A DNA stretch of 64,000 bases from Spirochaetales bacterium (GCA_050872545.1 JBNMHA010000001.1:4047-68046); one strand, 5' to 3'; shown: positions 411-31,573, counted from the stretch's first letter. A program made the numbers and translations. Notes: a model not told the origin generated them from the letters alone.

Positions 411-575
411 CGTTAAAACTTAACACAAAGAGCGATTGCTGCACCGTTCGGCGTTGCCTGTTGTCTGTGGCTTCTGCCACACGAAAGTTCACCTTTGTTC
501 CCGGAAGTCAGCCCAATGTCTACCGAAAATCGGTTCATTTCACCTTTCAGCCAAGCCCTTGCACCTAATGCCCCG
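411..575 (-). repeat. Conserved 3'-end module, copy 1 of 4 (~165 nt, ~95% nucleotide identity), covering the last ~47 codons, the stop and the intergenic linker
   Basis: Direct comparison with the segments at 1327-1490, 2109-2275 and 3023-3190. Confidence 0.85.
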
Positions 576-1318
576 AACATGAACGATAAGCCAGTACTGC
601 TTACCAAACCGCCAAAAATAGAAAGTGCTCCGCCTAAAACTCGAATAGAATAAGTTGATGAATCTGATTTCCTTAGATTTTCTTCTATCACGCCTAAATG
701 TGTACCTGTAAATAATATTATTCCGCTTATAAACATAGGAACAAAACATCCTCCAACTACACCAAAAGAAATTGCTATTCTCTTGTATAATTTCAGGTGT
801 TTGTTTGAAAGATTGATAAAACGTTCTTTATCTTTAATTTCTCCATTTTGACAAACATCATCTCCTATAATGCTGAATATAATTCCACTCACCAAAAATA
901 CTTGAGAAATAAAAACGGGAAATAGTCCAAAGAAGAAAGTAAAAGGCAGCAAAATTGTACTCATATTCGGGGTTTCAACATCAAAGCATATCTTTTCCCA
1001 CCATTTTGGAATAACGTGATAAGCATATCCTACCGACGCAACTGTATAAGGAACAGACAATGCCAATGAAGTAAATCCTAAAAAACGAGTAGCATGACCT
1101 CTTATTATTTTATATTCTGGAGTTCTTCGCAATGCTCTGCGTTTATTTCGTGCATTACGTCTTTCTTGACGTTCCTGCTTTCTTATTTTTTTATAATCAT
1201 TTTCTATTGAAAAATCTGGTACTGCATTTTCTATTTCCGGCAAATTTTCTGTTTTTTCATTAGCGAAAAAACTTAATGTGCAAAAAAGTAAAACTGTTAT
1301 TAAAATCAATCGCTTCAT
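413..1318 (-). CDS. Polytopic membrane protein, paralog type A (copy 1): signal peptide, Arg/Lys-rich segment, 4-5 TM helices, conserved hydrophilic C-tail
   Basis: ORF of 301 aa. Its N-terminal 40 aa and C-terminal ~50 aa (...AWLKGEMNRFSVDIGLTSGNKGELSCGRSHRQQATPNGAAIALCVKF) are near-identical to the ORF at 2112..3014, while the core diverges. An 11-nt gap separates it from the upstream gene. Confidence 0.6.
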   Translation of the reverse strand: MKRLILITVLLFCTLSFFANEKTENLPEIENAVPDFSIENDYKKIRKQERQERRNARNKRRALRRTPEYKIIRGHATRFLGFTSLALSVPYTVASVGYAYHVIPKWWEKICFDVETPNMSTILLPFTFFFGLFPVFISQVFLVSGIIFSIIGDDVCQNGEIKDKERFINLSNKHLKLYKRIAISFGVVGGCFVPMFISGIILFTGTHLGVIEENLRKSDSSTYSIRVLGGALSIFGGLVSSTGLSFMFGALGARAWLKGEMNRFSVDIGLTSGNKGELSCGRSHRQQATPNGAAIALCVKF

Positions 1319-1326
1319 TTCTGTCT

Positions 1327-1490
1327 CCGTTAGAACTTAACGCAAAGAGCAATCGCTGCACCGTTCGGCGTTATTTGTTGTCTGCGGCTTCTGTCACACG
1401 AAAGTTCGCCTTTATTCCCGGAAGTCAACCCAATGTCTACTGAAAGTCGGTTCGTTTGCCCTTTCAGCCAAGCAGACATTGCGAGACTGG
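1327..1490 (-). repeat. Conserved 3'-end module, copy 2 of 4
   Basis: Nucleotide identity to the modules at 411-575, 2109-2275 and 3023-3190. Confidence 0.85.
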
Positions 1491-2100
1491 TTATCATAAT
1501 CGGAAGAGTAAACAAAGCTGAACTTCCAAATGAAATTAAAATAATTCCAAGAGTAAGCAAATCTTTGTTGTTTTCGTTAAAACAGGCTGCTCCAATTATA
1601 CCGCCGCCAGCTCCTGCAATTGTCAGCCCAACGCCTGTAACAATACCGAATACTAATGCTAATGTTTGCCAAAGTTTTATTCTTGATTTGTAATATTCTG
1701 CCAATTTTTCACTTGAACAATACTGCTGTCTTTTCTGATACAGTTTAACTCCTGTCGACAACATAATTATTCCCGGTATCATAAATCCTAAAGGAATAAC
1801 GCTGAAAAATACCGCATTAAAAAGCCCTAAAGGGAAAACTGTTAATGCAAAATTTATTGATAACGGAACACAGATTAATGACAAAATTCCCGAATGTGCC
1901 AAAAATATGCTTCCTATTGCTGTTCGCCGGATAGCTTTATATGTTTTCACTTCCATTGATTTTTCATCCAAGCGAAATTCCGGCTGTGTTTGCGTATCCT
2001 TTTCTATACAAAACGATGTTTTATCTTCTATTTCATTTGAATATATTTGAATAACCGAAAATATACTTATAAATATTGCTGCAACTAATAACTTGCTCAT
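1330..2100 (-). CDS. Polytopic membrane protein, paralog type B (copy 1)
   Basis: ORF of 256 aa. Its N-terminal ~45 aa (MSKLLVAAIFISIFSVIQIYSNEIEDKTSFCIEKDTQT...) and C-terminal ~60 aa are shared with the ORF at 3026..3799. The hydrophobic core is variable. Confidence 0.6.
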   Translation of the reverse strand: MSKLLVAAIFISIFSVIQIYSNEIEDKTSFCIEKDTQTQPEFRLDEKSMEVKTYKAIRRTAIGSIFLAHSGILSLICVPLSINFALTVFPLGLFNAVFFSVIPLGFMIPGIIMLSTGVKLYQKRQQYCSSEKLAEYYKSRIKLWQTLALVFGIVTGVGLTIAGAGGGIIGAACFNENNKDLLTLGIILISFGSSALFTLPIMITSLAMSAWLKGQTNRLSVDIGLTSGNKGELSCDRSRRQQITPNGAAIALCVKF

Positions 2101-2108
2101 TTCTGCCT

Positions 2109-2275
2109 CCGTTAAAACTTAACACAAAGAGCGATCGCTGCACCGTTCGGCGTTGCATGTTGTCTGCGGCTTCTGTCACACGAAAGTTCGCCTTTGTTCC
2201 CGTAAATCAGCCCAATGTCTACCGAAAGTCGGTTCATTTCACCTTTCAGCCAAGCCCTCGCACCTAATGCCCCGA
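2109..2275 (-). repeat. Conserved 3'-end module, copy 3 of 4
   Basis: Nucleotide identity to the other three copies. Confidence 0.85.
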
Positions 2276-3014
2276 ACATGAATGAGAATCCAAGTCCGGA
2301 AAATATTGTTCCTAAAGTTGTAAGAATTACACCGGATTGTAAGTTAAGAGTGTCTTGATATACTGTTCCACATTTTATTCCGCAAAGTATTCCAATTCCA
2401 CCAGCAAACATTGGGATAAATAATGTTCCAAATACAGCACCAACAATCGTAATGCTGCGAAATATTTTAGATAATTTGATTGAGACTATTTTAAATTGGG
2501 TTTCATCGATTTTTTCTATATTACGTTTTTTATAATATTTGCCGTATGCCAAACTTAAACCTATTCCCACACCGACAGAAGCAATTCCTAACAAAATAGG
2601 AACACTCAAGAAGATAAAAAACAAGGAATATGCAATCCCCCAACTCCAATCGTATGATGATGTGACATCAAATCCGGAATCAAAAAAAAATGCAGCAGCA
2701 GAAGCAAGCGGAATCATTACATGATAGATATAACCTGCTGTCAAAATAGTTGCCGGAACAGAAAAAACTGATGTTGTGACTGCACCAAAAACAATTAAAG
2801 AACTTTTTAACATTTTGTATTCTGCTGTTCTTTTTAAAGCTCTTTTTTCTCGTCGTCTCTCCAATTTTTCTTGCCGCCAAATTTCTCGCTGTTCATTTTC
2901 TATTGAAAAATCTGGTACTGCATTTTCTATTTCCGGCAACGCTTCAGCTTTTTCATTAGCGAAAAAACTTAGTGTGCAAAAAAGTAAAATTGTTATTAAA
3001 ATTAATCGTTTCAT
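2112..3014 (-). CDS. Polytopic membrane protein, paralog type A (copy 2)
   Basis: ORF of 300 aa, mosaic relative to 413..1318 (conserved termini, divergent core). Confidence 0.6.
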   Translation of the reverse strand: MKRLILITILLFCTLSFFANEKAEALPEIENAVPDFSIENEQREIWRQEKLERRREKRALKRTAEYKMLKSSLIVFGAVTTSVFSVPATILTAGYIYHVMIPLASAAAFFFDSGFDVTSSYDWSWGIAYSLFFIFLSVPILLGIASVGVGIGLSLAYGKYYKKRNIEKIDETQFKIVSIKLSKIFRSITIVGAVFGTLFIPMFAGGIGILCGIKCGTVYQDTLNLQSGVILTTLGTIFSGLGFSFMFGALGARAWLKGEMNRLSVDIGLIYGNKGELSCDRSRRQHATPNGAAIALCVKF

Positions 3015-3022
3015 TTCTGCCT

Positions 3023-3190
3023 CCGTTAAAACTTAACGCAAAGAGCGATTGCTGCACCGTTCGGCGTTGCCTGTTGTCTGTGGCTTCTGTCACACGAAAG
3101 TTCGCCTTTATTCCCAGAAGTCAGCCCAATGTCTACAAAAAACCGATTCATTTCACCTTTCAGCCAAGCAGACATTGCGAGACTGGTTAT
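3023..3190 (-). repeat. Conserved 3'-end module, copy 4 of 4
   Basis: Nucleotide identity to the other three copies. Confidence 0.85.
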
Positions 3191-3799
3191 CATAATCGGA
3201 AGAGTTGAAAACACACTTCCACTTCCCACGAATGTAAAAATATTACCTAAGATTCCGTAAGTCGGATTGCTCACTGAAGCAAATAAACTTACGCAAATTA
3301 ATCCTATTCCAGCCAATGCTATCCCTCCACTGCATGAACAAATAATTCCAGATACAATTGCTGATGTCTTTAGTTTCATCAATTTTTTTGTAATAAACGG
3401 CTGCAATTTTTCTAAATGCATATACGAATGCTTGTATTTTTTTATCCCAGAAGACAATAAAACACTGCCCGAGATTAATGTTCCTAATAACCCACCCACA
3501 GATAAACATGTTAATGTTGCACTTAAAACAATTGAACTTATTGAACGCAAATCTGTTAGTAAAAAAACATCAGTCACCGCACAAACATTGAATATTGTTG
3601 TTGCGCTACCTATTAGGATTGCTCCGGCATGAATTTTATTTATTTGGTTTACTAAAATTTTTTCATCCAAGCGAAATTCCGGATGAGTTTGTGTATCCTT
3701 TTCTATACAAAACGATGTTTTATCTTCTATTTCATTTGAATATATTTGAATAACCGAAAATATACTTATAAATATTGCTGCAACTAATAACTTGCTCAT
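3026..3799 (-). CDS. Polytopic membrane protein, paralog type B (copy 2)
   Basis: ORF of 257 aa, mosaic relative to 1330..2100. Confidence 0.6.
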   Translation of the reverse strand: MSKLLVAAIFISIFSVIQIYSNEIEDKTSFCIEKDTQTHPEFRLDEKILVNQINKIHAGAILIGSATTIFNVCAVTDVFLLTDLRSISSIVLSATLTCLSVGGLLGTLISGSVLLSSGIKKYKHSYMHLEKLQPFITKKLMKLKTSAIVSGIICSCSGGIALAGIGLICVSLFASVSNPTYGILGNIFTFVGSGSVFSTLPIMITSLAMSAWLKGEMNRFFVDIGLTSGNKGELSCDRSHRQQATPNGAAIALCVKF

Positions 3800-3811
3800 T
3801 TCTGCCTCCTG

Positions 3812-6800
3812 TTAATCAAAAAGATTAATTAATTTATCATTCATTAAATTAGAATCTATTTCATTCATAGCATCATTAAATACACAATAAATTCTAGTAG
3901 TTTGATGATCATAAAAACCATCCCATCCAAATGTAAAAGAATTTTCCAAAGGAATTGCTTTTTCGATTTGATACCAGTATTTCTCAATATTTTTGTCGTA
4001 ATAACTACGCCCTGCACCAGAAATAAATCCATCAATACTAATATTATTTGAGAAATCAACAAAGTGAGCTTCATCTCTGTAAAGAATATGGATTTCTTGA
4101 GAAATCTTACATGCTGCTAATCGAATTAACTGAACAGTTAAATATGTAAAATCTAAAAAAGTTACAGCTAGCGCAATCTGAAGTGCAATTTCCCAAGAAT
4201 AATTATAAGGCGGAATAATTCCATCATCAAAAGCCGGCGGAACAATTTCATCATCATTACTATAAAAATTGTACATTTTTACCTTTTTGTCGCCGCTGAG
4301 TGAATTAAATGTCTTATTCGGAAACTTAAAGCAATCTCTGTTAGATTTTTCGTTGTCTCCTATATCTGCTGTACTTGTTCCTACGCCGTTCAGTCCTACT
4401 ACAAATGGGATTTCACTCGCAAACTTTTCCATTTTGTCAGTTTGCAGATTGTGCATTGTGATGTTATTCACCGTTACACCGTGCGAATGCCCTATAAGTA
4501 TTATTTGAGACGCTCGGCAGTAAAAAAGGTTTGCCGCTACTCTGTCGTATATAAATTTTTCCAGTGCTTCGGCTGCCGCGTCACGGTATTCATAATTGTT
4601 TTCGCCCGACCAGTTGAAGTAATACGCTTTGTCATTTTGCGAATAATCCAAATTCAAAGCTTTTGCTACAGACGGCTGTTTAAAAAATTTTGCGGTATTT
4701 CCTTCACCGTTTTCGCAAAACATGTAATAGTTTCCATGCTGTTTAGCTTCAGTTACCCACTTATAAAAAAGCGTTCCATGTGTAAATATTACTATTCTGC
4801 TTGTAGGTACATCGTCAAGTTCCGATAAAAACTCCCGGCTGTCATCAGCTTCTTCCGTTACTTCAAACTTTACCACACTGTAATCTTTATACAATTTGTA
4901 CGTATAACTTGTAGTTACGCCTTGGCTGTCTTTTTGTGAACTGACATAAAGAGCCCAATATCCTTCGGTAGCTTTCCTTAAATCTTCCCTAAATGTGTCA
5001 TGCTCATAACCGCTTCCGTTGCTGGATGATGTATGTGATTTCATGTGAATGGAAACAGTTTTCACATATCTAAAATATGACGTACACAATTCATTGCCAT
5101 TTTTATCTAAAAGCGGAACACCTTTTACAAACTTTTTTGTAGGAATATACGGCTGTCCGTTTTTTTGCAGGTAGTATTCGGTATCGCCAATGCGAAAAAG
5201 ATTATTTGAATGAGGTTCACCGCTTTGGTAACAGGCATTCCGCACTGCATTTTCAGTCGCTGCAATTCTGAATTCGCCGACATTGTTTGAAAAAATTGCC
5301 GGAGTCTGCGGTACTTCTATTCTTACTTCCGGTTCATCCGCATCAATAAAATACATATCATTTTCAGGTTCTTTCTGTTCCACTCCGGCAAAGTCCGCCA
5401 GTTTCGCCACAATCTGCATTGCGGTTTCATTTGCCTTTATGTAATCATTATCCCGAAATGTTTTTTGCAGTTTTTTTGTGTCATCAAGCAAATCAATTTG
5501 TTTCCTTGTATCTTCATCCGCCGCCAAACTGACAAGGCGCGAAGTCAATTCCCACAACGTTATGCCCTCTGCACGCCGTACACTGCTTACGTTAGTTGAA
5601 ACTCCTATTAAATCAAAAGTTACTTCCTCATCACGGTCTGCATTTACAAGATACGGAAAACTCAATGTCATATTCGCACCGGCAGCCAATTCTACAGATG
5701 TAGATTTTAAATCCATTTGGACAAACGACGGAATATTTTCAAAACGCAGACATATCACATCAGTTTGCTTTGCATTATTTGTAACTGTTACTTTTATCTG
5801 GCTTTTTACACCTTTAGTGTAATAACCGACATTTGATTGAATCGAAAAATCGGCATCTACAACATTCAGTTTAATGACATGTTCACGTTTTACTTTAGGA
5901 TTGTTTGCCGAACTGCAAATTATCTTTACTTCAGTACTTTTCTTTTCAGTAAGCTTCACTGCAACTTCTATTGTTTCATGAGATTTTCCGTTTAATGCAG
6001 CTGTATTTTTAGATAACTTAACTTGGGCAAAATCAGAATCCGCACTGATAAAATATGAATCCTTAATATCCGTATTATTATGAATTACGATCGATGTTAA
6101 AATTTCTGCATTCAACGGCAATGACAATGAAGAATTTCCAGATATTGTGAAATCCGCATTGCTTGGATTAAACGTAATAGTAAAACTCTGCTTTTGCGCT
6201 GGATTGTTCACTGATGTCAAAGTAATTACTGCTTCTTTTGATGACGTTTCGTTTAGTTTCGCTTCCAATACAAGACTTTTGCTTTCACCGGATTTCACAG
6301 CAAATAAATTTGTCTCGGCTGATATTTCAAGACCAACGGATGGTTCTGTTTCTACTTTGTACGTATCATCAACATCACCATTATTTGTTATATTCAGTGT
6401 CTGCCGAGTACTTTCATTCACTGCTACAAACAACGCATTATTTCCAGATATTGTGAAATCCACGTTACTTGGATTAAACGTAATAATGAAACTTTGTTTC
6501 TGTGCCGGATTGTTCACTGATGTCAAAGTAATTACTGCTTCTTTTGATGATGTTTCGTTTAGTTTCGCTTCCAGCGCAAGACTTTTGCTTTCACCGGATT
6601 TCACGGCAAATAAATTTGTCTCGGCTAATATTTCAAGACCAGCGGATGATTCTGTTTCTACTTTGTACGTATCATCAACATCGCCGTTATTTGTTATGTT
6701 CAGTGTCTGCCGAGTACTTTCGTTCACCGCAACAAACAGCGCATTATTTCCAGATATTGTGAAATCCGCATTGCTCGGGTTAAACGTAATGGTAAAACTC

Positions 6801-8392
6801 TGCTTTTGCGCTGGATTGTTTACTGATGTCAAAGTAATTACTGCTTCTTTTGATGATGTTTCGTTTAGTTTCGCTTCCAGTGCAAGGCTTTTGCTTTCAC
6901 CGGATTTCACTGCAAATAAATTTGTCTCGGCTGATATTTCAAGACCGGCGGATGATTCTGTTTCTACTTTGTACGTATCATCAACATCGCCGTTATTTGT
7001 TATATTTAGCGTCTGCCGAGTACTTTCATTCACCGCAACAAACAACGCATTATTTCCAGATATTGAAAAATCCGCATTGCTTGGGTTAAACGTAATAATG
7101 AAACTCTGCTTTTGTGCCGGATTGTTTACAGATGTCAAAGTAATTACTGCTTCTTTTGATGATGTTTCGTTTAGTTTCGCTTCCAGTGCAAGACTTTTGC
7201 TTTCACCGGATTTCACTGCAAATAAATTTGTCTCGGCTAATATTTCAAGACCAACGGATGGTTCTGTTTCTACTTTGTACGTATCATCAACATCGCCGTT
7301 ATTTGTTATATTTAGCGTCTGCCGAGTGCTTTCATTCACCGCAACAAACAGCACATTATTTCCAGATATTGTGAAATCCACGTTACTTGGATTAAACGTA
7401 ATGGTAAAACTCTGCTTTTGCGCCGGATTGTTCACTGATGTCAAAGTAATTACTGCTTCTTTTGATGACGTTTCGTTTAGTTTCGCTTCCAGTGCAAGGC
7501 TTTTGCTTTCACCGGATTTCACGGCAAATAAATTTGTCTCGGCTGATATTTCAAGACCGACGGATGATTCTGTTTCAACTTTGTATGTATCATCAACATC
7601 GCCATTATTTGTTATGTTCAGTGTCTGCTGAGTACTTTCATTCACTGCTACAAACAGCGCATTATTTCCAGATATTGTGAAATCCGCGTTACTTGGATTA
7701 AACGTAATGGTAAAACTACAGTTTTCATTTGAATCATTTTCCGAAACTGCGGTAATATCGACTTTGCCGATTCTTGATTCCGGCAGCATAACGCTGTAAT
7801 CTACAGTTTCATACTCTCCGGAAGAGATTTTAACTTCAGTTTTTGTCAACGTTAAGCTAACATTTTCACATACCGCCGACAGCGCATATTTATCCGAAAA
7901 TTTTCCGGTATTTCTTACAATGAAATTTCCGGTCAATTGTTTATTCACCGGCAAATACAAAGATGAATCTCCGATTATCTCAACTTTTGCCGGAGTAGAA
8001 ATATCTACAGTCAACAAAATTTCTTTTTTATTCGGACGAAAAGATTCCCCGCCTACGACAAATATAGCTGCCTTGTAACTTCCTTTTTTCAAAGCTTTTA
8101 CGCAAAATATCGCTTCTTTCTTTTCACGTGCATTTACAGAAATTTTTTCTGCAAACTCCAAGTTGAAGCCTTCAGATTTTTCTGCTGACAAATAAAAATC
8201 CTGCGAATAATCCTCTTGATTTTCTATAAATACAGAAAGCAATTGCTCTGTTTCCAACGGCATTTTTTTAAGCAGCTGATTTTCCGACAGTGCAAATTTG
8301 TACTCTCTGTGAGTTTTCACTTCGTTCCATTGTTCCTGCGTACAGCTGAAAATAAACAGCAGCATTATCGACAACAAACTATAGTATTTCAT
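3812..8392 (-). CDS. Giant surface lipoprotein (1526 aa): lipobox, Ig/CARDB-like region, 5.3 near-identical 102-aa tandem repeats, C-terminal alpha/beta-hydrolase (lipase/esterase-like) domain
   Basis: Signal peptide with lipobox IFSC. The unit FTITFNPSN...AQKQS is repeated. The C-terminal region carries HG (FTHGT) and the nucleophile-elbow GHSHG motif typical of lipase/esterase folds. The gene overlaps its neighbours in the operon. Confidence 0.6.
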   Translation of the reverse strand: MKYYSLLSIMLLFIFSCTQEQWNEVKTHREYKFALSENQLLKKMPLETEQLLSVFIENQEDYSQDFYLSAEKSEGFNLEFAEKISVNAREKKEAIFCVKALKKGSYKAAIFVVGGESFRPNKKEILLTVDISTPAKVEIIGDSSLYLPVNKQLTGNFIVRNTGKFSDKYALSAVCENVSLTLTKTEVKISSGEYETVDYSVMLPESRIGKVDITAVSENDSNENCSFTITFNPSNADFTISGNNALFVAVNESTQQTLNITNNGDVDDTYKVETESSVGLEISAETNLFAVKSGESKSLALEAKLNETSSKEAVITLTSVNNPAQKQSFTITFNPSNVDFTISGNNVLFVAVNESTRQTLNITNNGDVDDTYKVETEPSVGLEILAETNLFAVKSGESKSLALEAKLNETSSKEAVITLTSVNNPAQKQSFIITFNPSNADFSISGNNALFVAVNESTRQTLNITNNGDVDDTYKVETESSAGLEISAETNLFAVKSGESKSLALEAKLNETSSKEAVITLTSVNNPAQKQSFTITFNPSNADFTISGNNALFVAVNESTRQTLNITNNGDVDDTYKVETESSAGLEILAETNLFAVKSGESKSLALEAKLNETSSKEAVITLTSVNNPAQKQSFIITFNPSNVDFTISGNNALFVAVNESTRQTLNITNNGDVDDTYKVETEPSVGLEISAETNLFAVKSGESKSLVLEAKLNETSSKEAVITLTSVNNPAQKQSFTITFNPSNADFTISGNSSLSLPLNAEILTSIVIHNNTDIKDSYFISADSDFAQVKLSKNTAALNGKSHETIEVAVKLTEKKSTEVKIICSSANNPKVKREHVIKLNVVDADFSIQSNVGYYTKGVKSQIKVTVTNNAKQTDVICLRFENIPSFVQMDLKSTSVELAAGANMTLSFPYLVNADRDEEVTFDLIGVSTNVSSVRRAEGITLWELTSRLVSLAADEDTRKQIDLLDDTKKLQKTFRDNDYIKANETAMQIVAKLADFAGVEQKEPENDMYFIDADEPEVRIEVPQTPAIFSNNVGEFRIAATENAVRNACYQSGEPHSNNLFRIGDTEYYLQKNGQPYIPTKKFVKGVPLLDKNGNELCTSYFRYVKTVSIHMKSHTSSSNGSGYEHDTFREDLRKATEGYWALYVSSQKDSQGVTTSYTYKLYKDYSVVKFEVTEEADDSREFLSELDDVPTSRIVIFTHGTLFYKWVTEAKQHGNYYMFCENGEGNTAKFFKQPSVAKALNLDYSQNDKAYYFNWSGENNYEYRDAAAEALEKFIYDRVAANLFYCRASQIILIGHSHGVTVNNITMHNLQTDKMEKFASEIPFVVGLNGVGTSTADIGDNEKSNRDCFKFPNKTFNSLSGDKKVKMYNFYSNDDEIVPPAFDDGIIPPYNYSWEIALQIALAVTFLDFTYLTVQLIRLAACKISQEIHILYRDEAHFVDFSNNISIDGFISGAGRSYYDKNIEKYWYQIEKAIPLENSFTFGWDGFYDHQTTRIYCVFNDAMNEIDSNLMNDKLINLFD
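6100..7717 (-). repeat. In-frame tandem repeat array inside the giant lipoprotein gene: 306-bp unit, about 5.3 copies, more than 95% identical
   Basis: Plus-strand shadow ORFs in 6147..7680 recur with a 306-nt period. The protein repeat 'ITFNPSN(A/V)DF(T/S)ISGNN' occurs six times. Confidence 0.9.
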
Positions 8393-8939
8393 TTTCCCTC
8401 CTTATTGTGAAATCAACAACCTTACACTTAATAAAAGGACGATAACTTATTGAACTGACATAACCATTGCCGAAATATGTACTGGCAGATAAACATTGCT
8501 GCACAACAAACGGATAAACAGATAAGGCTTTGTATATTCTGTTATAAAATGAACTTTCCGATTCAGTCACCGGTTCAAATTTTCTGCTAAATGTTATCAA
8601 TTGATTTTCCCGATAGAATATTTCAATTCCGTTGTCTTCACCGTAAACCATACACGGAAGCTTCTTAGGTGTTCTGTTCAATCGATACAAACTGCCGCTT
8701 TCAGAAATAAAAATAAGTTCTTGTTTTGAAAGTCCGTTTACATCGTAAATGTCATTAGCCTGATTTACTAACTTTACAGATGTCAAAGTTTCTTCATCGA
8801 CTTCACTTTCAATTTTTGCCGTATTGTCCACTTGTACTGTAACATTGTCTTCTTCCTGCAAAGTTTTATGGCTTTTCCAAGTACACCCGACATTGATGGC
8901 CACAAAAAGCAGCACAATTATTAACTTAGAAAAAATCAC
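8379..8939 (-). CDS. Hypothetical lipoprotein
   Basis: ORF of 186 aa with signal peptide and Cys (INVGC). Its start and stop overlap the flanking genes, consistent with operon coupling. Confidence 0.5.
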   Translation of the reverse strand: MIFSKLIIVLLFVAINVGCTWKSHKTLQEEDNVTVQVDNTAKIESEVDEETLTSVKLVNQANDIYDVNGLSKQELIFISESGSLYRLNRTPKKLPCMVYGEDNGIEIFYRENQLITFSRKFEPVTESESSFYNRIYKALSVYPFVVQQCLSASTYFGNGYVSSISYRPFIKCKVVDFTIRRENEIL

Positions 8940-10300
8940 ATTTCCTCCCCATAAAAAAAATTAATCTGATAAACAGCAAACTCGTATTTCGTATCGAGAG
9001 TTTTCTTCCTTGCTTCGATTATCCGTTCAATTGCATTTTTTATTTCGTATACTTCGATAAGCCCTTTCTGAAATGCCTCTGTAACTTCCCGATACTCTTC
9101 TTCCGACAATTTTTCATACGCTTCTAACGTTCTTATTTTTTTTCTGTAGTTTTGAATTTGTTTTGTATGCAAGGCATTTTTGTATTCTTTGATTTCTTGA
9201 TGTTCTTGAAGTTCATACTGAAGTTTCTTCTGCTCTTTCCTCAAGTCGCACAATCGCAGCTGTTGTTTGGAGAACGGTAAGGAAAAATTCAAAGGCATTT
9301 TTACAACGAAATTCAAGCTTCCGACTTTGTCATTCCAATATTTGCCGCTATTTTCAAACCAATCTCCTAACCAAGGATTGCGTGTATAACTGGGTGAAAA
9401 CAAGTAATTTACTTGAAGTGACGGAATGAAATGCGCAATTTCTTCCGCAATATTAAGTTTCAGTTCTTTTTGCCGCAACGAAAATTCTTCTTCACGATAT
9501 TCAGAACATGTTTTTTCATCAAAAAAACTCTCATTATGAAAATCTTCTAATTCGCCTGAAAAATAAATATTTTCTTCTCCAAGCAAAAAATTAAGGAACA
9601 TAAGACTTTTCTCATACAAGTTTTCTGTTTCATCAACTTCCTGTTGCAATTCATTTTTTTTCAATTCTGAATAAATAGTTCTGTATTTTTCCAAGCGATC
9701 ATCACATAAAGCCAGCATATTGCAAAATTGTTTTGTCAGTTCTGCATGTTCATTTGTCACTGCATTTTTTGCTTTATGATAAAAAACAGCAGCACAACCG
9801 GATAAAGCTGTTTTCCTAATTTCATTTTCAGCAAGTTCAAATGAAAGTTTGTTCTGCTTTAATAAATTTAACTTACTGCACAGTGACAAAATTGAAGCCA
9901 CGTTAAATTCCCAAACTGAATATGCTGTAAAATTTACACTCCAACGAGGTTTGGTCACATCAAAAGAGTTTGGGATAACTTCATCATATCCATTTGCAGT
10001 CGCACTTAATAAGTTAGGAAGCAATTCTTCGTATGTCGTTGTTCTGTCTTTATCACTCAAATTAGAACGAGAAAAGCTGCCGCATATTCCAAACTGCGGA
10101 ATAAACTCATCAAAACTTTCGATTATTTTCAGTTTTTTCTGCAATATGCTAATATTTTTTTGTTTAAGCGAAAGGCAATGTTTAACTGCCGTATCTGCGG
10201 CTTCTGCCGGAGTGATTAAAACATTTGCTCCGGCAAAAACTACAGAAAACAGAAATACTGAAATTGAAATAAGTTTTTGCATCGACAAAAATTCTTTCAT
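8936..10300 (-). CDS. Secreted coiled-coil protein, possibly a TolC-like outer-membrane channel
   Basis: ORF of 454 aa with a signal peptide. Long helical heptad-like segments alternate with short beta-like stretches, resembling the outer-membrane efflux protein architecture. The family assignment is uncertain. Confidence 0.35.
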   Translation of the reverse strand: MKEFLSMQKLISISVFLFSVVFAGANVLITPAEAADTAVKHCLSLKQKNISILQKKLKIIESFDEFIPQFGICGSFSRSNLSDKDRTTTYEELLPNLLSATANGYDEVIPNSFDVTKPRWSVNFTAYSVWEFNVASILSLCSKLNLLKQNKLSFELAENEIRKTALSGCAAVFYHKAKNAVTNEHAELTKQFCNMLALCDDRLEKYRTIYSELKKNELQQEVDETENLYEKSLMFLNFLLGEENIYFSGELEDFHNESFFDEKTCSEYREEEFSLRQKELKLNIAEEIAHFIPSLQVNYLFSPSYTRNPWLGDWFENSGKYWNDKVGSLNFVVKMPLNFSLPFSKQQLRLCDLRKEQKKLQYELQEHQEIKEYKNALHTKQIQNYRKKIRTLEAYEKLSEEEYREVTEAFQKGLIEVYEIKNAIERIIEARKKTLDTKYEFAVYQINFFYGEEM

Positions 10301-10315
10301 TTCATCACACCCTGT

Positions 10316-10669
10316 TTAGTCGGCACGAACAAAAGTGCCCCAACTCCAAAGTGTCAACTTTCCGCCTGACAATGTGTAAGCGTAAGTTTCATCTTTGTCT
10401 TTAAAGTTGATTATACCGCTTTCGGATTTATCAATTTCCCACTCAAAGCTATTTGAAACCGAACCATTTTTGTAAACATAGTCCACTTTCATTTTGTCAT
10501 TAGATGTGAATTCCAGATTATATTTCTCATACACAGAAAATTCTTTGCTATCAAAATCTTCCGGAACCCATTTCCCAATAAGTCCGCATTCCACTCCAGC
10601 AGGAGTACAGCTCGCCAATGCAAAAATAAATGCAACAGTAATAAAACAAATTTCTAATCCTCTTTTCAT
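10316..10669 (-). CDS. Small 'GKW-motif' lipoprotein (117 aa), first gene of operon 1
   Basis: Lipobox LASC followed by the motif TPAGVECGLIGKW. It is paralogous to 11321..11701 and 63449..63814. Confidence 0.6.
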   Translation of the reverse strand: MKRGLEICFITVAFIFALASCTPAGVECGLIGKWVPEDFDSKEFSVYEKYNLEFTSNDKMKVDYVYKNGSVSNSFEWEIDKSESGIINFKDKDETYAYTLSGGKLTLWSWGTFVRAD

Positions 10670-10706
10670 AGTTAATATCCTTGTAATAAAATTTCACGAA
10701 ACTGTA

Positions 10707-10738
10707 AGATTAGCCGGCTATTGCAATCTCGCTGTCAA
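10707..10738 (-). promoter_or_regulatory. Candidate sigma70-like promoter for operon 1
   Basis: On the minus strand: TTGACA (10738-10733), a 20-nt spacer, then TAATCT (10712-10707), about 40 nt upstream of the RBS AAGGAT and the ATG at 10669. The spacer is longer than optimal. Confidence 0.25.
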
Positions 10739-10770
10739 GTTTTATCGTTCATGAAAAGCGATTTTGCAAG

Positions 10771-10815
10771 AAAAAAAACTTCCCGGAGGTCAAGAAAATT
10801 CTCCGGGAAGTTTTT
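10771..10815. terminator. Bidirectional intrinsic terminator (A8, CTTCCCGGAG, 12-nt loop, CTCCGGGAAG, T5)
   Basis: Perfect 10-bp GC-rich inverted repeat flanked by an A-run and a T-run. It separates operon 2 and the repeat element from the operon-1 promoter. Confidence 0.65.
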
Positions 10816-11027
10816 CTTGGTAAATTTTTTGTTAGTTATATTGATTTTGAAATTAATACAAGTATAATTAAAATTTTTTGTTATAAACAAATCAAGACTT
10901 TATACCAATTTAGTATTATTTACAAAATGTGTGGCAATTTTCTTTGCAGGGGACAGACCTCAATTCTAACTTGGGATACAAGTAAATTCGGGTGGATATG
11001 AAAGTAAACTAAGGGACCGACCTATAT

Positions 11028-11205
11028 GCTATTTTAGAATTAAAGTCTGTCCCTTGTGTTAATGAGATCTCCGGGTCAAGCCCGAAGATGACATAAAATT
11101 TCACAAATTACTTTGTTATTCCCTAACTTGCGTCCTATTGTCATTGCCCGGTGCGACCGGATAATGACATTAGGCTTGTATGGTGTCAGACCTATATGCT
11201 ATTTC
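11028..11205. repeat. 187-bp structured repeat unit (1.1 copies) with internal inverted repeats
   Basis: Contains GGTCTGTCCC pairing with GGGACAGACC upstream, the hairpin ATCTCCGGG-tcaag-CCCGAAGAT, and CCTATTGTCATT-19nt-AATGACATTAGG. Confidence 0.7.
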
Positions 11206-11320
11206 CACATATAAATACAGCGCAAAAAGCATAAAAAAAGCGGCAAGAAATTTTTGTTTCTTACCGCTTATTTCAAAAAGGATTATGTTTATTATTTGCC
11301 GACAAAACAATTTTCCAAAA

Positions 11321-11701
11321 TTAACATGTTCGTTCTAAAACTAAAGATCTGGAGAAAATTAAGTATCCGCCGCTTAAAATACATGAAATTTCTCCGTCCG
11401 GAAGTCCTTTGCCCTCACCGTCAATACACTCAATTTCCAAAATTGTTCCATTAAAAATGCAGCCATCGCCTTCTTTACTTGTACCTGTTATTTTATATAC
11501 CTCAGAAAGTTTTTCACTTCCGTTATCCCAAGAATAAACGAAAGTATCATCTGCATAAAATTCTATAATATACGTAACTCCGCCGGATTCGCCGCTCCAT
11601 TTTCCCAATAAATCGCAACTAACGCCAGCACAAGTACACGATATTATCAAAAAAAACAAAGCAACCGGCAGCAATGCAAAAAATCCAATTTTACTTTTCA
11701 T
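11321..11701 (-). CDS. Small 'GKW-motif' lipoprotein (126 aa), last gene of operon 2
   Basis: Lipobox IISC followed by TCAGVSCDLLGKW. Its signal-peptide coding sequence and RBS are identical to those of 11711..12712. Confidence 0.6.
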   Translation of the reverse strand: MKSKIGFFALLPVALFFLIISCTCAGVSCDLLGKWSGESGGVTYIIEFYADDTFVYSWDNGSEKLSEVYKITGTSKEGDGCIFNGTILEIECIDGEGKGLPDGEISCILSGGYLIFSRSLVLERTC

Positions 11702-11710
11702 TGTCGTCTC

Positions 11711-12712
11711 CTAAATCAAAGAACATGTCAAATTTATCATGTTATATTTGTATACTTTATCTGTCCAAGCTTGAATTATGTAGATATTATCCCCATGCCG
11801 TGCGCTATCCGTATCTTTCGTTTTTATTGAAACTCTATCTTTTTCAACACCGCTTCTATCGAATGTTACAATCGATTTATTTGTTAAAAGAGTAATGAAA
11901 TCATCATTTTGATAGAGTGAATTCACACTAAAAAAGCCTCCTGTAGAAAAAACTTTTTCTACATTTAAAACATTATCAATTACCGAATAACGAAACAGAT
12001 CAACATCACGCCTTTCTCTTTCCCCATTATTTTCAGATACAACAAAAGTTCCGAGCAAATAAGGATCATAAAAATCTAAATACAAATAATCTTTATCAAA
12101 GCACGATAAATCAACAAATTTCTTTTGTGTAAGGTTATAAATATCGCTATACCCTAAACTATAAAGCAGAGAAACATAAACATTATTACCATTATGACCG
12201 GCAAATTTAGTCAAATACATTTCGCCTCCCGGCAGTGTCTCGTAGCGTATCTTTCTTGTTTGTGCATTATACACCGCATAAGTCACTGGAACATCTTTGA
12301 ATCCGGGAACACATGGTGCAATCCAAAGTTCATTATTTACATACGTAAAACATTCTGCAACTCTGGAAAGTTCAAAATGGAGTTCCTGTACTTTCCCGGT
12401 CAACGGATTCAAGCGGGCTATACGACCGTTTACAGTTAAAAAATACACGCTTTCATCAAAACTTTTATCATAAAAGAAATCACAAATTATACTTTCCGGG
12501 AATTTATACGTATATATCGCAGTTTCGGTTTTGGTATCGAAAGCAATTATTTTATGGCAATTGTCATCCCATCGGGATGTTAAGAAAATTGTATTTTCAT
12601 CAACATTTATTGGTTTGAAAGACGGAAACGGTGACAACGGTGCTTCACAAGACGTTATCAAAGAAAACAAAGCAAGCAGCAGCAATGCAAAAAATCCAAT
12701 TTTACTTTTCAT
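11711..12712 (-). CDS. Paralogous lipoprotein family member 1 (333 aa)
   Basis: Lipobox ITSC. The N-terminal ~180 aa and the C-terminal RHGDNIYIIQAWTDKVYKY.MINLTCSLI are shared with 12722..13735. A 9-nt intergenic gap precedes it. Confidence 0.6.
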   Translation of the reverse strand: MKSKIGFFALLLLALFSLITSCEAPLSPFPSFKPINVDENTIFLTSRWDDNCHKIIAFDTKTETAIYTYKFPESIICDFFYDKSFDESVYFLTVNGRIARLNPLTGKVQELHFELSRVAECFTYVNNELWIAPCVPGFKDVPVTYAVYNAQTRKIRYETLPGGEMYLTKFAGHNGNNVYVSLLYSLGYSDIYNLTQKKFVDLSCFDKDYLYLDFYDPYLLGTFVVSENNGERERRDVDLFRYSVIDNVLNVEKVFSTGGFFSVNSLYQNDDFITLLTNKSIVTFDRSGVEKDRVSIKTKDTDSARHGDNIYIIQAWTDKVYKYNMINLTCSLI

Positions 12713-12721
12713 TGTCGTCTC

Positions 12722-13735
12722 CTAAATCAAGGAACATGTCAAATTTATCATGTCATATTTGTATACTTTATCTGTCCAAGCTTGAATTATGTAGATATTA
12801 TCCCCATGCCGTGCGCTATACTCACCTTTTATGTCTATTGGAACTCTAGCTTTCTCTCTATAATTATTTTTTTTATCAAAAGCAATGAATGAATCTGTAG
12901 TCACATAAACTATAACATCATCATTTTGATAAAGTGAATTCATATTATAGAAACCATCAGCAAAAAAAAGTTTTTCTACACTCAACACATTATCAGTTAT
13001 CGAATAATGAAATACATCTGTATTACGCTGATTTTGCTGTTCATTCCAATGTACACAAACCATATAAGGGTCATAAAATTCTATACAAAAATAGCATTTA
13101 TTTTCCTTATCCAAACAGGATATATCCACACCTTTTTTCTGTGTAATATTGTAAATCTCTGCCGGCTGCTGTGAAATATAAAATGAAATATATGTATTTC
13201 CATTTTCATATCCGGCATATTCTTCACAAAAGATTACCCCACTCGGCAACGTTTCGTAGCGTACCTTTCCTGTTTGGGCATTATACACCGCATAAGTTAC
13301 CGGAACATCTTTGAATCCGGGAACACACGGTGCAATCCAAAGTTCATTATTTATATACGTAAAACGTTCTGCAACTCTGGAAAGTTCAAAATGAAGCTCT
13401 TGTACTTTCCCGGTTAACGGATTCAATCGGGCTATACGACCATTGAGAGTCAGAAAATACATGCTTTCATCAAAACTTTTGTCATAAAAGAAATCATAAA
13501 TTATACTTTCCGGGAATTTATACGTATATATCGCAGTTTCGGTTTTGGTATCAAAAGCAATTATTTTATGGCAATTGTCATCCCATCGGGATGTTAAGAA
13601 AATTGTATTTTCATCAACATTTATTGGTTTGAAAGACGGAAACGGTGACAACGGTGCTTCACAAGACGTTATCAAAGAAAATAAAACTAACATCGGCAAT
13701 AACAACAACACAAGAAAATTTATTCCGCTTTTCAT
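12722..13735 (-). CDS. Paralogous lipoprotein family member 2 (337 aa)
   Basis: Mosaic relative to 11711..12712. The RBS AAGGAG lies upstream. Confidence 0.6.
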   Translation of the reverse strand: MKSGINFLVLLLLPMLVLFSLITSCEAPLSPFPSFKPINVDENTIFLTSRWDDNCHKIIAFDTKTETAIYTYKFPESIIYDFFYDKSFDESMYFLTLNGRIARLNPLTGKVQELHFELSRVAERFTYINNELWIAPCVPGFKDVPVTYAVYNAQTGKVRYETLPSGVIFCEEYAGYENGNTYISFYISQQPAEIYNITQKKGVDISCLDKENKCYFCIEFYDPYMVCVHWNEQQNQRNTDVFHYSITDNVLSVEKLFFADGFYNMNSLYQNDDVIVYVTTDSFIAFDKKNNYREKARVPIDIKGEYSARHGDNIYIIQAWTDKVYKYDMINLTCSLI

Positions 13736-13926
13736 CGATTCTCCTTAGTGATAGGGGATGTCTAATAAGTTTAAGTCCTAGAGGTCATTGAGCCCGTCGA
13801 AATGACCAAATGTGGTTTCGATATAACCAAAAACTAAAGTTTTTGGCTTGCTCAAACATCGCATTTTCAACTTTTAGGACATTCCCTTTATTTAGTAACT
13901 GTTTGATACACAATTTGAAAATTACG

Positions 13927-14949
13927 CTATTCAATAACTTTCATTGAAAAATCTTCCAAATTGATTTTATAAATACTGTGAGTATCACCTTTTACGCAGT
14001 AAAAGAATCCGTCACGAACATAATTGGAAAAAGAAGATTGCATATTTAAAGAATTTGATTTTTTAAGTCTATAATTATCTTTAGCATAAACCAGAAAACT
14101 TCTTTTTTCAGGATCTATACCATAAACAAATAGATATTTTTCTGTTTCATATACTCCCTGAACTCTAATTTTTTTAATATTAAGAAGTTTATTTACTTCT
14201 AATTTTGGCACTATTGATTTTATTTTATATATAAATACTTCATCTATACTGTCTGCTACTAAAAACCCATTGTAATAATCGTACCAAGAACATTTAACAG
14301 AATTATCCAATGACGATATGTCAAGTTTTTTCTTATCTGTATAATTATATATTTCAGCTTCATCCATATATAATGGCAAGAAAACTTTATCATCCATTTT
14401 AAAAGGTGTTGCATTTAACAAAATTCCTTCCGGCAATTCTTCATAACGATACGAATCGGTAGCCGGTGTATATACAAAATATTTTACAGGGGTATTTTTA
14501 AAACCCGGATAATTCGGACTTACCCACACTTCGTTATTGAAAATTACCAAATCTTCCGGTTCTCTGATTAATTCTATATTTTTAATTTCACTCATTTTCC
14601 CGGAAGTTACATCCAGTTTTGCTGTTCGCCCATCCCCAAATATTACATATATATTGTTTTTATCTGTTTCATAATCATAGGCTACTTCATAAAGACTTAA
14701 ATTTTTATCGAATACATATCTGTAAAGAAGCTTTTGTTTATCTGAATCAAATACAATTATTTCATTTAATTCACTGCCATCTTTTGCGGTAGAGCCATCA
14801 CAATTATCAAAAACAAAAATATTTTCATGCATTTCTATAGATACATCAAACGTCGGCAAAGGAACATCTTTTTGGTTTTCCTCCATATTGCAGCCTACAC
14901 AACTTGTAAATAGACAGAATAAAGCTATGATTTTATATATAAATTTCAC
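13927..14949 (-). CDS. Paralogous lipoprotein family member 3 (about 341 aa from a GTG start)
   Basis: The ORF track starts at 14979, but AAGGAG followed by 6 nt and GTG at 14949 gives the typical signal peptide MKFIYKIIALFCLFTSC. The C-terminus ...KINLEDFSMKVIE is shared with the two upstream paralogs. Confidence 0.5.
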   Translation of the reverse strand: MKFIYKIIALFCLFTSCVGCNMEENQKDVPLPTFDVSIEMHENIFVFDNCDGSTAKDGSELNEIIVFDSDKQKLLYRYVFDKNLSLYEVAYDYETDKNNIYVIFGDGRTAKLDVTSGKMSEIKNIELIREPEDLVIFNNEVWVSPNYPGFKNTPVKYFVYTPATDSYRYEELPEGILLNATPFKMDDKVFLPLYMDEAEIYNYTDKKKLDISSLDNSVKCSWYDYYNGFLVADSIDEVFIYKIKSIVPKLEVNKLLNIKKIRVQGVYETEKYLFVYGIDPEKRSFLVYAKDNYRLKKSNSLNMQSSFSNYVRDGFFYCVKGDTHSIYKINLEDFSMKVIE

Positions 14950-14970
14950 TGTTTGTCTCCTTAGTGATAA

Positions 14971-14995
14971 CTCCCCCATAAAACAAGGGGGGGAG
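14971..14995. other. Intergenic GC hairpin with a homopolymer (C5, 9-nt loop, G7) immediately upstream of the RBS of the 13927 gene
   Basis: CTCCCCC-ATAAAACAA-GGGGGGGAG followed by TTTTATTT. A paralogous copy at 16148-16170 has G6. Confidence 0.7.
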
Positions 14996-15036
14996 TTTTA
15001 TTTAATGACTGCTTGATACACAATTTGAAAATTACA

Positions 15037-16128
15037 CTATTCAATAACTTTCATTGAAAAATCTTCCAAATTGATTTTTAAAACTGCCGGATTTTCTTCA
15101 CCTACAGAGTTTATTGTATAAACATATTTTCCAACTTGGTAAAATTGCTCCAAACTTATAGTCGGATTATATTTTTTCACATCTGGATAATGCTCCCTAA
15201 AAGAATCCAATATTTCGTTTGTTTCAGGATCATACTTTAGAATATCTTTATAAGCTTCGCCTGTATCTAAATACAAATAATCACCATACTCAAGATCTGC
15301 ATAACATACGACATCGAGTGTTTGCAGCGGCTTAGAAACTTTAAACTTTGATTCTCCAAATTCTTCAAGTTTGTACAACGTAGTTTTTGTTTCGTACATC
15401 ATTTTCTCTTCATTTCTTATTTTTTTTCTTTTTCCTACAATGCCTTTTTTGAAAAAAGAAACAAAATGAAAAGCCGTAACTGAATCATCGATTAAATCAG
15501 GAAAATAATCATTCAAATCGATATTCATATCTTTTTGCTTTGTCCAGTTATAAATATCTCTTTGTGTATATGCATTATAAACTGAATCCGCAGCTACAAC
15601 ATATATATCACCGTCATACTTAAAGGGAGAACCTAGAAATTTATACGGTTCTGAAGTAAGCTCTTCGGTTTGGTAATAATAACGATATATTTTATCATTA
15701 TGATTATCCATAAAAAGCAAGTTGTCACTTTCGAATTCAAACATAGAAACCGTTCCGCCCAATGTTGGTTCTCCAAAATATTTTATTTTAGCAGTAGCCG
15801 GATCAAACTCAGACAAACGTGCTAATTTTCTTGAATCCCTATGTCCATGATATACAAAATAGCATTTCTTCTGCTCCTTCACGTATTTAAAATCATGGGT
15901 AATGTTTTTATCTGGATCTAAATGATACCGCTTTACGATTCTATCTGTAGATAAATCAACTGCTAAAAATTGTCTGTTTTTTCCGCAATCAAAAAAGAAA
16001 TATATTGAATCAGTAACTTCTATAGGCTTAAATTCAGGAAATGAACCATCTATTTCTTCTGTACAGCAAGAAAATAAAACTAACATCGGCAATAGCAGCA
16101 ACACAGGAAATTTTATTCCGCCTTTCAT
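15037..16128 (-). CDS. Paralogous lipoprotein family member 4 (363 aa)
   Basis: Signal peptide ending LFSCC. It is about 75% identical to 16212..17309 and shares the C-terminus NPAVLKINLEDFSMKVIE. Confidence 0.6.
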   Translation of the reverse strand: MKGGIKFPVLLLLPMLVLFSCCTEEIDGSFPEFKPIEVTDSIYFFFDCGKNRQFLAVDLSTDRIVKRYHLDPDKNITHDFKYVKEQKKCYFVYHGHRDSRKLARLSEFDPATAKIKYFGEPTLGGTVSMFEFESDNLLFMDNHNDKIYRYYYQTEELTSEPYKFLGSPFKYDGDIYVVAADSVYNAYTQRDIYNWTKQKDMNIDLNDYFPDLIDDSVTAFHFVSFFKKGIVGKRKKIRNEEKMMYETKTTLYKLEEFGESKFKVSKPLQTLDVVCYADLEYGDYLYLDTGEAYKDILKYDPETNEILDSFREHYPDVKKYNPTISLEQFYQVGKYVYTINSVGEENPAVLKINLEDFSMKVIE

Positions 16129-16147
16129 CGATTCTCCTTAGTAATAA

Positions 16148-16170
16148 CTCCCCCATAAAACAGGGGGGAG
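16148..16170. other. Intergenic GC hairpin with a homopolymer (C5, 8-nt loop, G6) upstream of the RBS of the 15037 gene
   Basis: CTCCCCC-ATAAAACA-GGGGGGAG followed by TTTTATTT. Confidence 0.7.
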
Positions 16171-16211
16171 TTTTATTTAATGACTGTTTGATACACAATT
16201 TGAAAATTACG

Positions 16212-18940: not shown

Positions 18941-18977
18941 AATTAATATCCTTGTAATAAGATTTCACGAAATTGTA

Positions 18978-19009
18978 AGATTAGCCAGCTATTGCAATCT
19001 TATTGTCAA
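18978..19009 (-). promoter_or_regulatory. Candidate sigma70-like promoter for operon 2 (copy of the 10707-10738 element)
   Basis: TTGACA (19009-19004), 20-nt spacer, TAATCT (18983-18978), inside the duplicated module. Confidence 0.25.
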
Positions 19010-19041
19010 GTTTTATCGTTCATGAAAAGCGATTTTGCAAG

Positions 19042-31570: not shown

Positions 31571-31573
31571 AGT

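Follow-up and report, generated by a model that had tools for sequence, protein, structure and literature searches.

The 64,000-nucleotide (nt) stretch of a Spirochaetales bacterium genome analysed here (GCA_050872545.1, JBNMHA010000001.1:4047-68046; the window) carries eight closely packed minus-strand genes near its start, called g1 to g8 in the order of transcription. An earlier note on this DNA had predicted eight minus-strand open reading frames (ORFs) running from 10,669 down to 413, and each is found where it was placed: g1 (10316-10669, 117 amino acids, aa), a lipocalin-like lipoprotein; g2 (8936-10300, 454 aa), a TolC-like protein; g3 (8379-8939, 186 aa, GTG start), a small lipoprotein; g4 (3812-8392, 1526 aa), a hydrolase-like lipoprotein; and the membrane paralogs g5 (3026-3799, 257 aa), g6 (2112-3014, 300 aa), g7 (1330-2100, 256 aa) and g8 (413-1318, 301 aa). 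Going from g1 to g8, the first two genes lie 15 nt apart, the next two junctions overlap by 4 and 14 nt, and the remaining gaps measure 12, 11, 11 and 11 nt; GGAGG stands 5-6 nt before the ATG of every paralog.

For comparison, 12 related loci without redundancy were used, every one from an uncultured gut spirochete; contig scans gave 1 (metagenome) and 3 (genome) loci, and the majority were obtained by exact-protein look-ups. Wherever the DNA downstream of the enzyme gene could be read in a related locus, genes of the paralog family come next, at a spacing of -4 to +17 nt, and the hydrolase-like lipoprotein and the paralog array are the only elements always linked in the 12 loci. Synteny therefore splits the eight-gene block that had been proposed as one conserved unit, the TolC-like and lipocalin-like genes being confined to the window lineage; the conserved functional unit is g4 with g5-g8, not all eight genes. 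Arrays hold from 1 (L015) to 9 (L003, L018) paralogs, the minimal locus, L015, consisting of the hydrolase and a single paralog of class beta. In other lineages the module occupies two chromosomal sites, either after an aminotransferase-ParA pair or after an AdoHcyase-methyltransferase pair, and neither site carries TolC-like or lipocalin-like genes.

The product of g4 is a lipoprotein (lipobox FIFSC) composed of a stalk of immunoglobulin (Ig)-like domains, a helical linker, a hydrolase-like core and a variable lid. The Ig-like matches are to Pfam fn3_6 and FixG_C, and a tandem repeat at 6134-7717 (minus strand) holds 5.2 copies of a 306-nt unit encoding a 102-aa Ig-like module, with 92% matches in Tandem Repeats Finder (TRF). 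The copy number of this repeat differs among strains; L004 has one copy, and most g4 homologues are only 820-910 aa long. On the plus strand, a 494-aa ORF (6147-7631) lies antisense to the repeat region, where ORFs of 72-79 aa recur every 306 nt; the long ORF is most simply a by-product of tandem repeats that lack stop codons in those frames.

The putative catalytic core (4223-4837, minus strand, aa 1186-1390) contains the oxyanion-like THG, the GHSHG motif (4478-4492) with Ser1303, and the acid motif NFYSNDDEIVPPAFDD. Within the last ~340 aa of g4, IVIFTHGT, ILIGHSHG, YSNDDEIVPPAFDD and DHQTTRI succeed each other in the order HG, GxSxG, Asp, His; across 19 sequences IVIFTHGT, ILIGHSHG, YSNDDEIVPP and DHQ vary little or not at all, and a remote homologue, P0053, keeps them. 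The predicted secondary structure around these motifs alternates between strand and helix. The C-terminal domain accordingly shows the nucleophile elbow, HG oxyanion element and Ser-Asp-His order of alpha/beta-hydrolases, so that the original call of g4 as a hydrolase is backed by its catalytic-type motifs but not by any significant family match. The best Pfam matches of the hydrolase-like domain at E<=10 are Cutinase (E 0.067), Lipase_2 (E 0.14) and Abhydrolase_2 (E 0.16), none of them significant. Tle3, a type VI secretion system (T6SS) family, is matched, below threshold (E 0.023, ~0.02), only with the core segment of P0053; all sub-threshold Pfam matches of the enzyme, Tle3 included, are to esterase/lipase families. 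Searches of the enzyme against PDB (phmmer, and hmmsearch with profiles) gave no match, NCBIfam gave nothing significant, and there was no hit with the PADLOC defence models; hhalign against Bacillus subtilis LipA, represented by an approximate sequence, reached an E of 0.29, which is not significant. An AlphaFold2 model from the shallow 19-sequence alignment has a mean predicted local distance difference test (pLDDT) score of 36.5 and is unusable. Judged by its motifs, g4 may have a hydrolase fold and act on lipids.

Both families are small, with 18 matches for the enzyme and 51 for the paralogs among the 5.8 billion representatives of clusters that cover ~15 billion proteins. When 1.84 billion representatives were scanned in full with hidden Markov models (HMMs), the search returned the enzyme family itself and one remote relative, P0053 from Candidatus Contendobacter (707 aa, E 8e-12, motif SQSHG), the only one outside spirochetes. 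In L012 (1330-4149) the P0053 gene has as neighbours genes for a PEP-CTERM-tagged protein and an uncharacterised protein, and no paralog array lies near it. The enzyme occurs in 3 of 185,579 GTDB species representatives, all of them metagenome-assembled genomes of Spirochaetales/Spirochaetota from animal gut or faeces.

The lid begins just after the acid motif and runs to the C-terminus. In the window this cassette (3815-4222, minus strand, aa 1391-1526) is of class I; it has one hydrophobic helix of transmembrane (TM) grade (aa 1402-1420) and ends in DHQTTRI, which contributes the putative catalytic His. Across the family, lids measure 136-220 aa and carry 1-3 such hydrophobic stretches, and, signal peptide aside, the TM-grade segments of the enzyme lie only in the lid, in every class. 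At least six discrete lid classes can be told apart, and they cut across the phylogeny of the core (Spearman 0.15 for lid identity versus core identity). Compared with P0037, the enzyme of L004, the window lid is 36% identical and the core 93%; compared with P0035, a class-I enzyme from a distant strain, the values are 72% and 75%. The window and L004 enzymes are 93-100% identical up to ~aa 1326, after which identity collapses, and their flanking genes share 96-97% DNA identity. As in polymorphic toxins, a conserved N-terminal region is thus joined in g4 to recombining C-terminal types. A second variable site was also observed in the enzyme, where some lid classes have a ~32-aa Gly-rich hydrophobic insertion right after GLNG(I/V)GTST. 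The insertion is present in P0037, P0049 and P0050 and absent from the window g4 (site at ~aa 1340, ~4371), and the DNA homology between the window and L004 ends exactly at this site.

The class of the first paralog tracks the class of the lid in 12 of 12 loci. Lids of class I are followed by a beta paralog (window, L015), those of class II by gamma (L004, L006-8 and L022/23, 3 lineages) and those of class III/IV by alpha (L016, L003 and L010, counted as 3), while class V is followed by a split 146+161-aa pair (L017, L020 and L021, counted as 2) and class VI by a 281-aa class (L018 and L019, counted as 1). Mantel tests, which correlate pairwise identities, give r=0.89 (p=5e-5) for lid versus first paralog and r=-0.01 (p=0.51) for core versus first paralog in 12 loci. 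In 7 loci, with exact permutations, lid versus first paralog gives r=0.87 (p=0.0006), and lid versus second paralog gives r=-0.22 (p=0.81). Given that the association is perfect for the adjacent pair yet gone by the second gene, the data argue for functional coupling rather than mere proximity.

The predicted paralogy of the four membrane proteins g5-g8 is borne out, and the structure model is a helical membrane bundle whose conserved tail is disordered. Sorted by their variable bodies, the paralogs form old orthologous classes common to several lineages, and the window array reads beta (cognate), delta, alpha, gamma. The product of g5 (beta) is predicted to be the cognate partner of the class-I lid; it is chimeric, its signal-peptide head being of the g7 type and its body of the beta class. 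The class of g6, delta, occurs in 6 of the 6 non-redundant arrays seen with at least three family genes and never stands first; g7 (alpha) and g8 (gamma) belong to classes that come first after class III/IV and class II lids, respectively, in other strains. Arrays thus carry classes that elsewhere stand first and are cognate to the local lid, and the locus has both the adjacent co-varying partner gene and the orphan array of polymorphic toxin loci. At the nucleotide level, same-type heads, tails and spacers are 83-100% identical, whereas the variable cores reach 40-60% in both the A-type pair (g8/g6) and the B-type pair (g7/g5), and comparison with L004 shows the window array to be a mosaic with breakpoints in the conserved junctions.

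Several arrays depart from this layout. One paralog class is known in just one form, a conserved split pair, 145/146 aa and 161 aa, with overlapping stop and start (L003, 10868-11787; L006, 16079-16998; also L018, L020 and L022). Each half has its own signal peptide, which suggests a four-helix protein built of two independently exported two-helix halves. In L009, the first gene after a hydrolase with a class II' lid is a 294-aa ORF (5896-6780) whose signal peptide head (MKRLFLMLVLVFLS...) is of the paralog type but whose body is beta-rich and unrelated, and which lacks the VKF tail; behind it come two normal paralogs. In L003 the hydrolase gene (2925-5578) consists of two overlapping ORFs (265 and 619 aa), a split that may reflect a frameshift or an error of assembly. 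Lastly, L002 (6370-11668) holds a five-gene paralog array without a hydrolase gene, at the chromosomal site where L018, L020 and L022 carry the hydrolase.

Pairing of lid and first paralog is expected of immunity, but supports membrane docking equally well. The hydrolase could be a non-antagonistic enzyme that acts on lipids from the host or the diet, or on the envelope of its own cell, with the four-helix protein as a docking or regulatory partner that anchors, activates or gates the lid. Polymorphism would then arise from phage or host-immune pressure on surface parts, and the extra paralogs would be alternative docks or a hetero-oligomeric platform. Near-universal delta genes are what a shared subunit would predict, the paralog classes form stable orthologous groups instead of evolving fast, and the variable-length Ig stalk suggests exposure at the surface. 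However, required subunits can hardly account for up to nine partners of different classes per enzyme, for the enzyme-less array of L002 or for the cognate-only locus L015, and the extra copies match the lid classes of other strains. We consider docking rather unlikely.

The paralog tails behave differently from the bodies, being near-uniform within a genome and lineage-specific, with endings ...DRSRRQQATPNGAAIALCVKF in the window and L004, ...DKKRNALEKPSGVKLAMSVKF in L002/L003 and ...GDKRRNVLEKPNGVALALSVKF in L006. An enzyme beside tandem target genes is a known genomic signature, and the paralogs could be substrates whose C-terminal tag, ...NRLSVDIGxTSGxxGELSxD...PxGxxxAxxVKF, is cleaved or transferred by the serine hydrolase in a sortase-like manner. 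Such a tag would account for a tail that is invariant within a genome and motif-conserved across lineages, that is predicted to be disordered on its own, like a peptide ligand, and that closes with an alternation of hydrophobic residues and a final Phe. Nevertheless, the window and L004 have identical tails and lids only 36% identical, so the variable part of the enzyme does not track the tail; for the same reason we rejected co-evolution of the tail with the lid. Processing also leaves unexplained why the lid covaries with the variable TM body of the first paralog alone, and tails of 83-94% nucleotide identity, against 40-60% in the cores of the A- and B-type pairs, fit concerted evolution by recombination at the junctions. 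Sorting or processing therefore appears improbable.

A conserved part, a swappable C-terminal cassette, a co-varying neighbour and a non-cognate array are together, by analogy, the signature of polymorphic toxin-immunity loci. The earlier note had suggested an effector-plus-immunity module, and for the hydrolase and the paralogs this idea gains comparative support from synteny and from the covariation of lid and first paralog. We tentatively favour, at somewhat less than even confidence, a polymorphic lipase-like lipoprotein effector with a cognate four-TM immunity protein and orphan immunities. On this proposal g4 would be lipid-anchored and probably surface-exposed, its Ser-Asp-His hydrolase-like head carried on the Ig stalk of variable length, with a cassette of hydrophobic helices between the catalytic Asp and His whose classes recombine. 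It would act as a membrane-lipid-directed (lipase- or phospholipase-like) effector against neighbouring bacteria. The gene directly downstream would supply an exported four-helix membrane protein with a variable body matching the lid class, and this first paralog would bind the lid helices in or at the membrane and so neutralise the enzyme. The further paralogs, in the window delta, alpha and gamma, would be orphan immunity genes against the lid classes of other strains, and the near-identical 5' heads, 3' tails and spacers would serve as recombination junctions through which cassettes are shuffled, added and deleted.

A number of observations weigh against an effector and its immunities. No T5SS, T6SS or T7SS (type V, VI or VII secretion system), PrsW or MafB-N trafficking module is recognised in g4, which offers only its lipoprotein signal peptide and Ig-like domains, and no known delivery machinery was found, T6SS domains being absent among the 38 window ORFs scanned against Pfam. 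No significant similarity to toxin, lipase or immunity families was detected in Pfam, NCBIfam, PADLOC or PDB. For the near-universal delta class, never in the cognate first position, a shared partner with a housekeeping role is a better match than an orphan immunity. The paralog classes are of old origin and diverge at roughly the rate of the enzyme core (54-72% identity between lineages), and such slow evolution gives no sign of an ongoing arms race. Immunity alone does not explain the strongly conserved paralog tail and signal-peptide head, and a hydrophobic lid poses an export problem for a lipoprotein that passes through Sec. Finally, the lid adjoins the first paralog, so that simple linkage could explain part of their covariation; proximity must contribute.

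The three genes ahead of g4 are not part of the conserved pair of families. The lipoprotein g1 (lipobox ALASC) matches Pfam Lipocalin_4 with 26.3 bits (cut-off 22.4), has paralogs of 120-126 aa nearby in the window and in L002/L022, and occurs together with the module only in L001, L004 and L005. The TolC-like call for the 454-aa ORF g2 is supported: Pfam OEP (PF02321) is matched above its cut-off of 22 with 33.7 bits (E 4e-8, residues 281-448), weak CusC/SilC matches (E 0.002-0.005) cover the same C-terminal half, and a signal peptide is present. Only one stretch of the OEP repeat is reported, the N-terminal half being without a Pfam match. The 186-aa lipoprotein g3 has no family match and is present in the window strain only. 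Its first ~55 aa differ by 2 substitutions in 54 aa from the N-terminus of P0037, which starts MIFSKLIIVLLFVTINVGCTWK...TLTSV and is then fused directly to an Ig repeat; the window segment 8772-7718 has no counterpart in L004. The L004 arrangement is more likely a deletion-fusion, and the converse, in which g3 results from an insertion in the window, was set aside because the FSCTQ lipobox of g4 matches the family consensus.

These genes bear on the remaining explanation, that of the earlier note, in which all eight genes form one secretion or surface machine: the TolC-like channel and the small lipoproteins would export or display the hydrolase, and the four membrane proteins would be the inner-membrane part. 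The tight coupling of the eight genes without an internal terminator fits such a machine, as do the OEP match above threshold and, in L004, the overlap between the stop of the TolC-like gene and the start of the hydrolase gene. However, outside the window lineage (L001, L004, L005) the module is not accompanied by the TolC-like and lipocalin-like genes, which are missing from 10 of the 12 non-redundant module loci; the TolC-like gene is absent from L003, L006-L011 and L015-L023. These loci imply that secretion or display of the hydrolase is independent of the TolC-like gene. In addition, g3 is strain-specific, the number of paralogs varies from one to nine, and no HlyD/MFP, RND or ABC domain, and hence no adaptor or pump partner, was found in the operon or among the 30 other window ORFs scanned (38 in all; ORFs such as 24607-25242, 56126-57427, 57428-58138 and 62185-63327 were outside the scan). 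A dedicated secretion module around the TolC-like protein is therefore not supported, and a single eight-gene machine is very improbable. The TolC-like, lipocalin-like and 186-aa genes are probably co-transcribed, lineage-specific add-ons, and the operon is a lineage-specific assembly of three accessory genes before a conserved, previously undescribed two-family polymorphic module.

As for transcription, a control region upstream of g1 (10670-10822, minus strand) contains a hairpin, TTGACA, a leader and an AAGGA ribosome-binding site. The hairpin, CTTCCCGGAG..CTCCGGGAAG followed by T8 (10770-10810, minus strand), has a folding free energy (dG) of -25.9 kcal/mol and a z of -6.0, and probably ends transcription of the preceding unit. 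A second hairpin, at 361-407 between the operon and a convergent purQ-like gene (dG -21.8, z -6.6), has its U-run on the plus strand, where it ends the purQ-like gene, and an A-run on the other side; given this orientation, it is at best a bidirectional terminator for the operon. Both flanking hairpins described earlier thus exist, the second being only possibly a terminator of this operon. The claim of no internal terminator splitting the block also stands, since the consensus scan found 10 terminator-like matches versus 8.8 expected, all weak and none convincing. That the upstream region holds the only promoter-like element could not be maintained: sigma-70-like matches occur at chance frequency throughout (47 found versus 46.8 expected in the consensus scan), and the TTGACA at 10733-10738 lacks a -10 box at a suitable distance. 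The tight coupling fits a single transcription unit; the unique promoter claimed for it is not supported.

A non-coding cassette of ~560 nt 5' of g1 (10670-11230) recurs at 18941-19500 (minus strand), before a gene for a 544-aa lipoprotein. Identity between the two copies is ~90% overall and rises to 100% over the final ~170 nt, a segment that takes in the T8 hairpin, TTGACA, leader and ribosome-binding site and reaches the third codon (ATG AAA AGA). The control region of g1 finds its 100% identical match at 19031-19081 and is conserved in L004, where both cassette copies are present again (3380-4030 and 7620-8285). This recurring identical region is the best evidence for a transcription start that would lie near 10700. 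Within the cassette, a ~175-nt unit that starts AATAGCATATAGGTCTGACACC and has hairpins of its own is present 2-3 times. The cassette has no match in Rfam, whose sole match was a spurious microRNA on the terminator hairpin, and may be either a regulatory region used in common or a small mobile repeat.

The same 544-aa lipoprotein belongs to an island of lipoprotein paralogs without Pfam matches (11321-18940, minus strand), together with a 126-aa lipocalin-like protein and proteins of 333/337, 350 and 363/369 aa. These families also flank paralog arrays in L002, L022/23 and L006/8, and therefore the whole neighbourhood is a rearranging lipoprotein region. The rest of the window has ordinary chromosomal content, including purine and amino-acid genes and chemotaxis genes: a CheW-CheR fusion (441 aa) adjoins CheA (794 aa) at 30245-33958 (minus strand), and genes for methyl-accepting chemotaxis proteins (MCPs) lie at 47053-48507 and 59974-62121, as in the ordinary chromosome of a motile bacterium.

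Known antagonistic systems offer partial parallels to the proposed effector and immunities. The T6SS effectors Tle1-5 are of the serine-hydrolase type with GxSxG, are thought to attack membrane lipids, and have adjacent immunity genes (Tli) that are often tandem. Our locus shares the GxSxG motif and the neighbouring tandem partner genes, the sub-threshold Tle3 match being the weakest hint, but it differs in having no T6SS genes (VgrG/Hcp/PAAR) among the 38 ORFs scanned and no significant Tle match. Moreover, Tli immunity proteins are periplasmic or lipoproteins, e.g. Tli3 (PMC9860674); here the partners are polytopic membrane proteins, and it is the enzyme that is a lipoprotein on an Ig stalk.

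A closer likeness in layout is found in polymorphic toxins of the contact-dependent growth inhibition (CDI), Rhs and MafB types (Zhang et al. 2012, PMC3482391). These too join a conserved N-terminal part to a recombining variable C-terminal cassette with which the directly downstream gene co-varies, followed by an array of extra orphan partner genes, in discrete classes that cross strains. Immunity arrays, lipoprotein-anchored variants, alpha/beta-hydrolase toxin domains and TM immunities for surface-acting toxins are all known among them (PMC3482391). In contrast, the variable part of g4 is not a whole toxin domain but is inserted within the catalytic domain between Asp and His; there is no T5, T6, T7 or other trafficking domain and no match to a known toxin or immunity family; and its partners are membrane proteins of four helices in which heads and tails are homogenised. 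As with pore-forming colicins and CDI ionophores, membrane-acting toxins that in the case of CDI have polymorphic cognate immunities (Halvorsen et al. 2024, PMC11630599), specificity would lie in hydrophobic helices read by a polymorphic cognate immunity, in many discrete cognate pairs within one species group; unlike g4, those bundles have no catalytic triad and are delivered via receptors and CdiB/Tol/Ton. Proteus mirabilis IdsD-IdsE (PMC4471559) is likewise encoded by two adjacent genes, for a transferred protein and a membrane protein, in which variable subdomains set allele-restricted binding, but it is T6SS-dependent and non-enzymatic and has no orphan arrays. As for the TolC/OEP factors CusC and SilC, g2 resembles them in its match above cut-off, usual length of 454 aa and signal peptide, and differs in showing the C-terminal repeat only, in having no nearby adaptor or pump and in not being conserved with the module.

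To our knowledge, such a locus layout has not been described from gut spirochetes, and interbacterial antagonism in spirochetes is almost unexplored, the usual delivery systems being, as far as we know, missing from them. It is doubtful, though conceivable, that the module is an interbacterial weapon free of any secretion system, in which a surface lipoprotein lipase on an Ig stalk would attack, on contact, the phospholipid-rich outer membrane of neighbouring spirochetes, which is free of lipopolysaccharide (LPS). Its specificity would come not from a toxin domain but from an intramembrane lid that can be exchanged and that a matching alpha-helical membrane immunity protein would recognise helix to helix, and the arrays would form a population-level immunity repertoire.

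Taken together, the locus provides a concrete effector/immunity candidate from two protein families without any annotation. Even if the system proves non-antagonistic, the perfect pairing of lid and partner defines a specific protein-protein interface. If the effector reading is true, this would be a polymorphic toxin made another way, by swapping a membrane-inserting lid inside an enzyme that is recognised within the membrane by an immunity protein, and lids and partners would provide markers for strain-level competition among gut treponemes.

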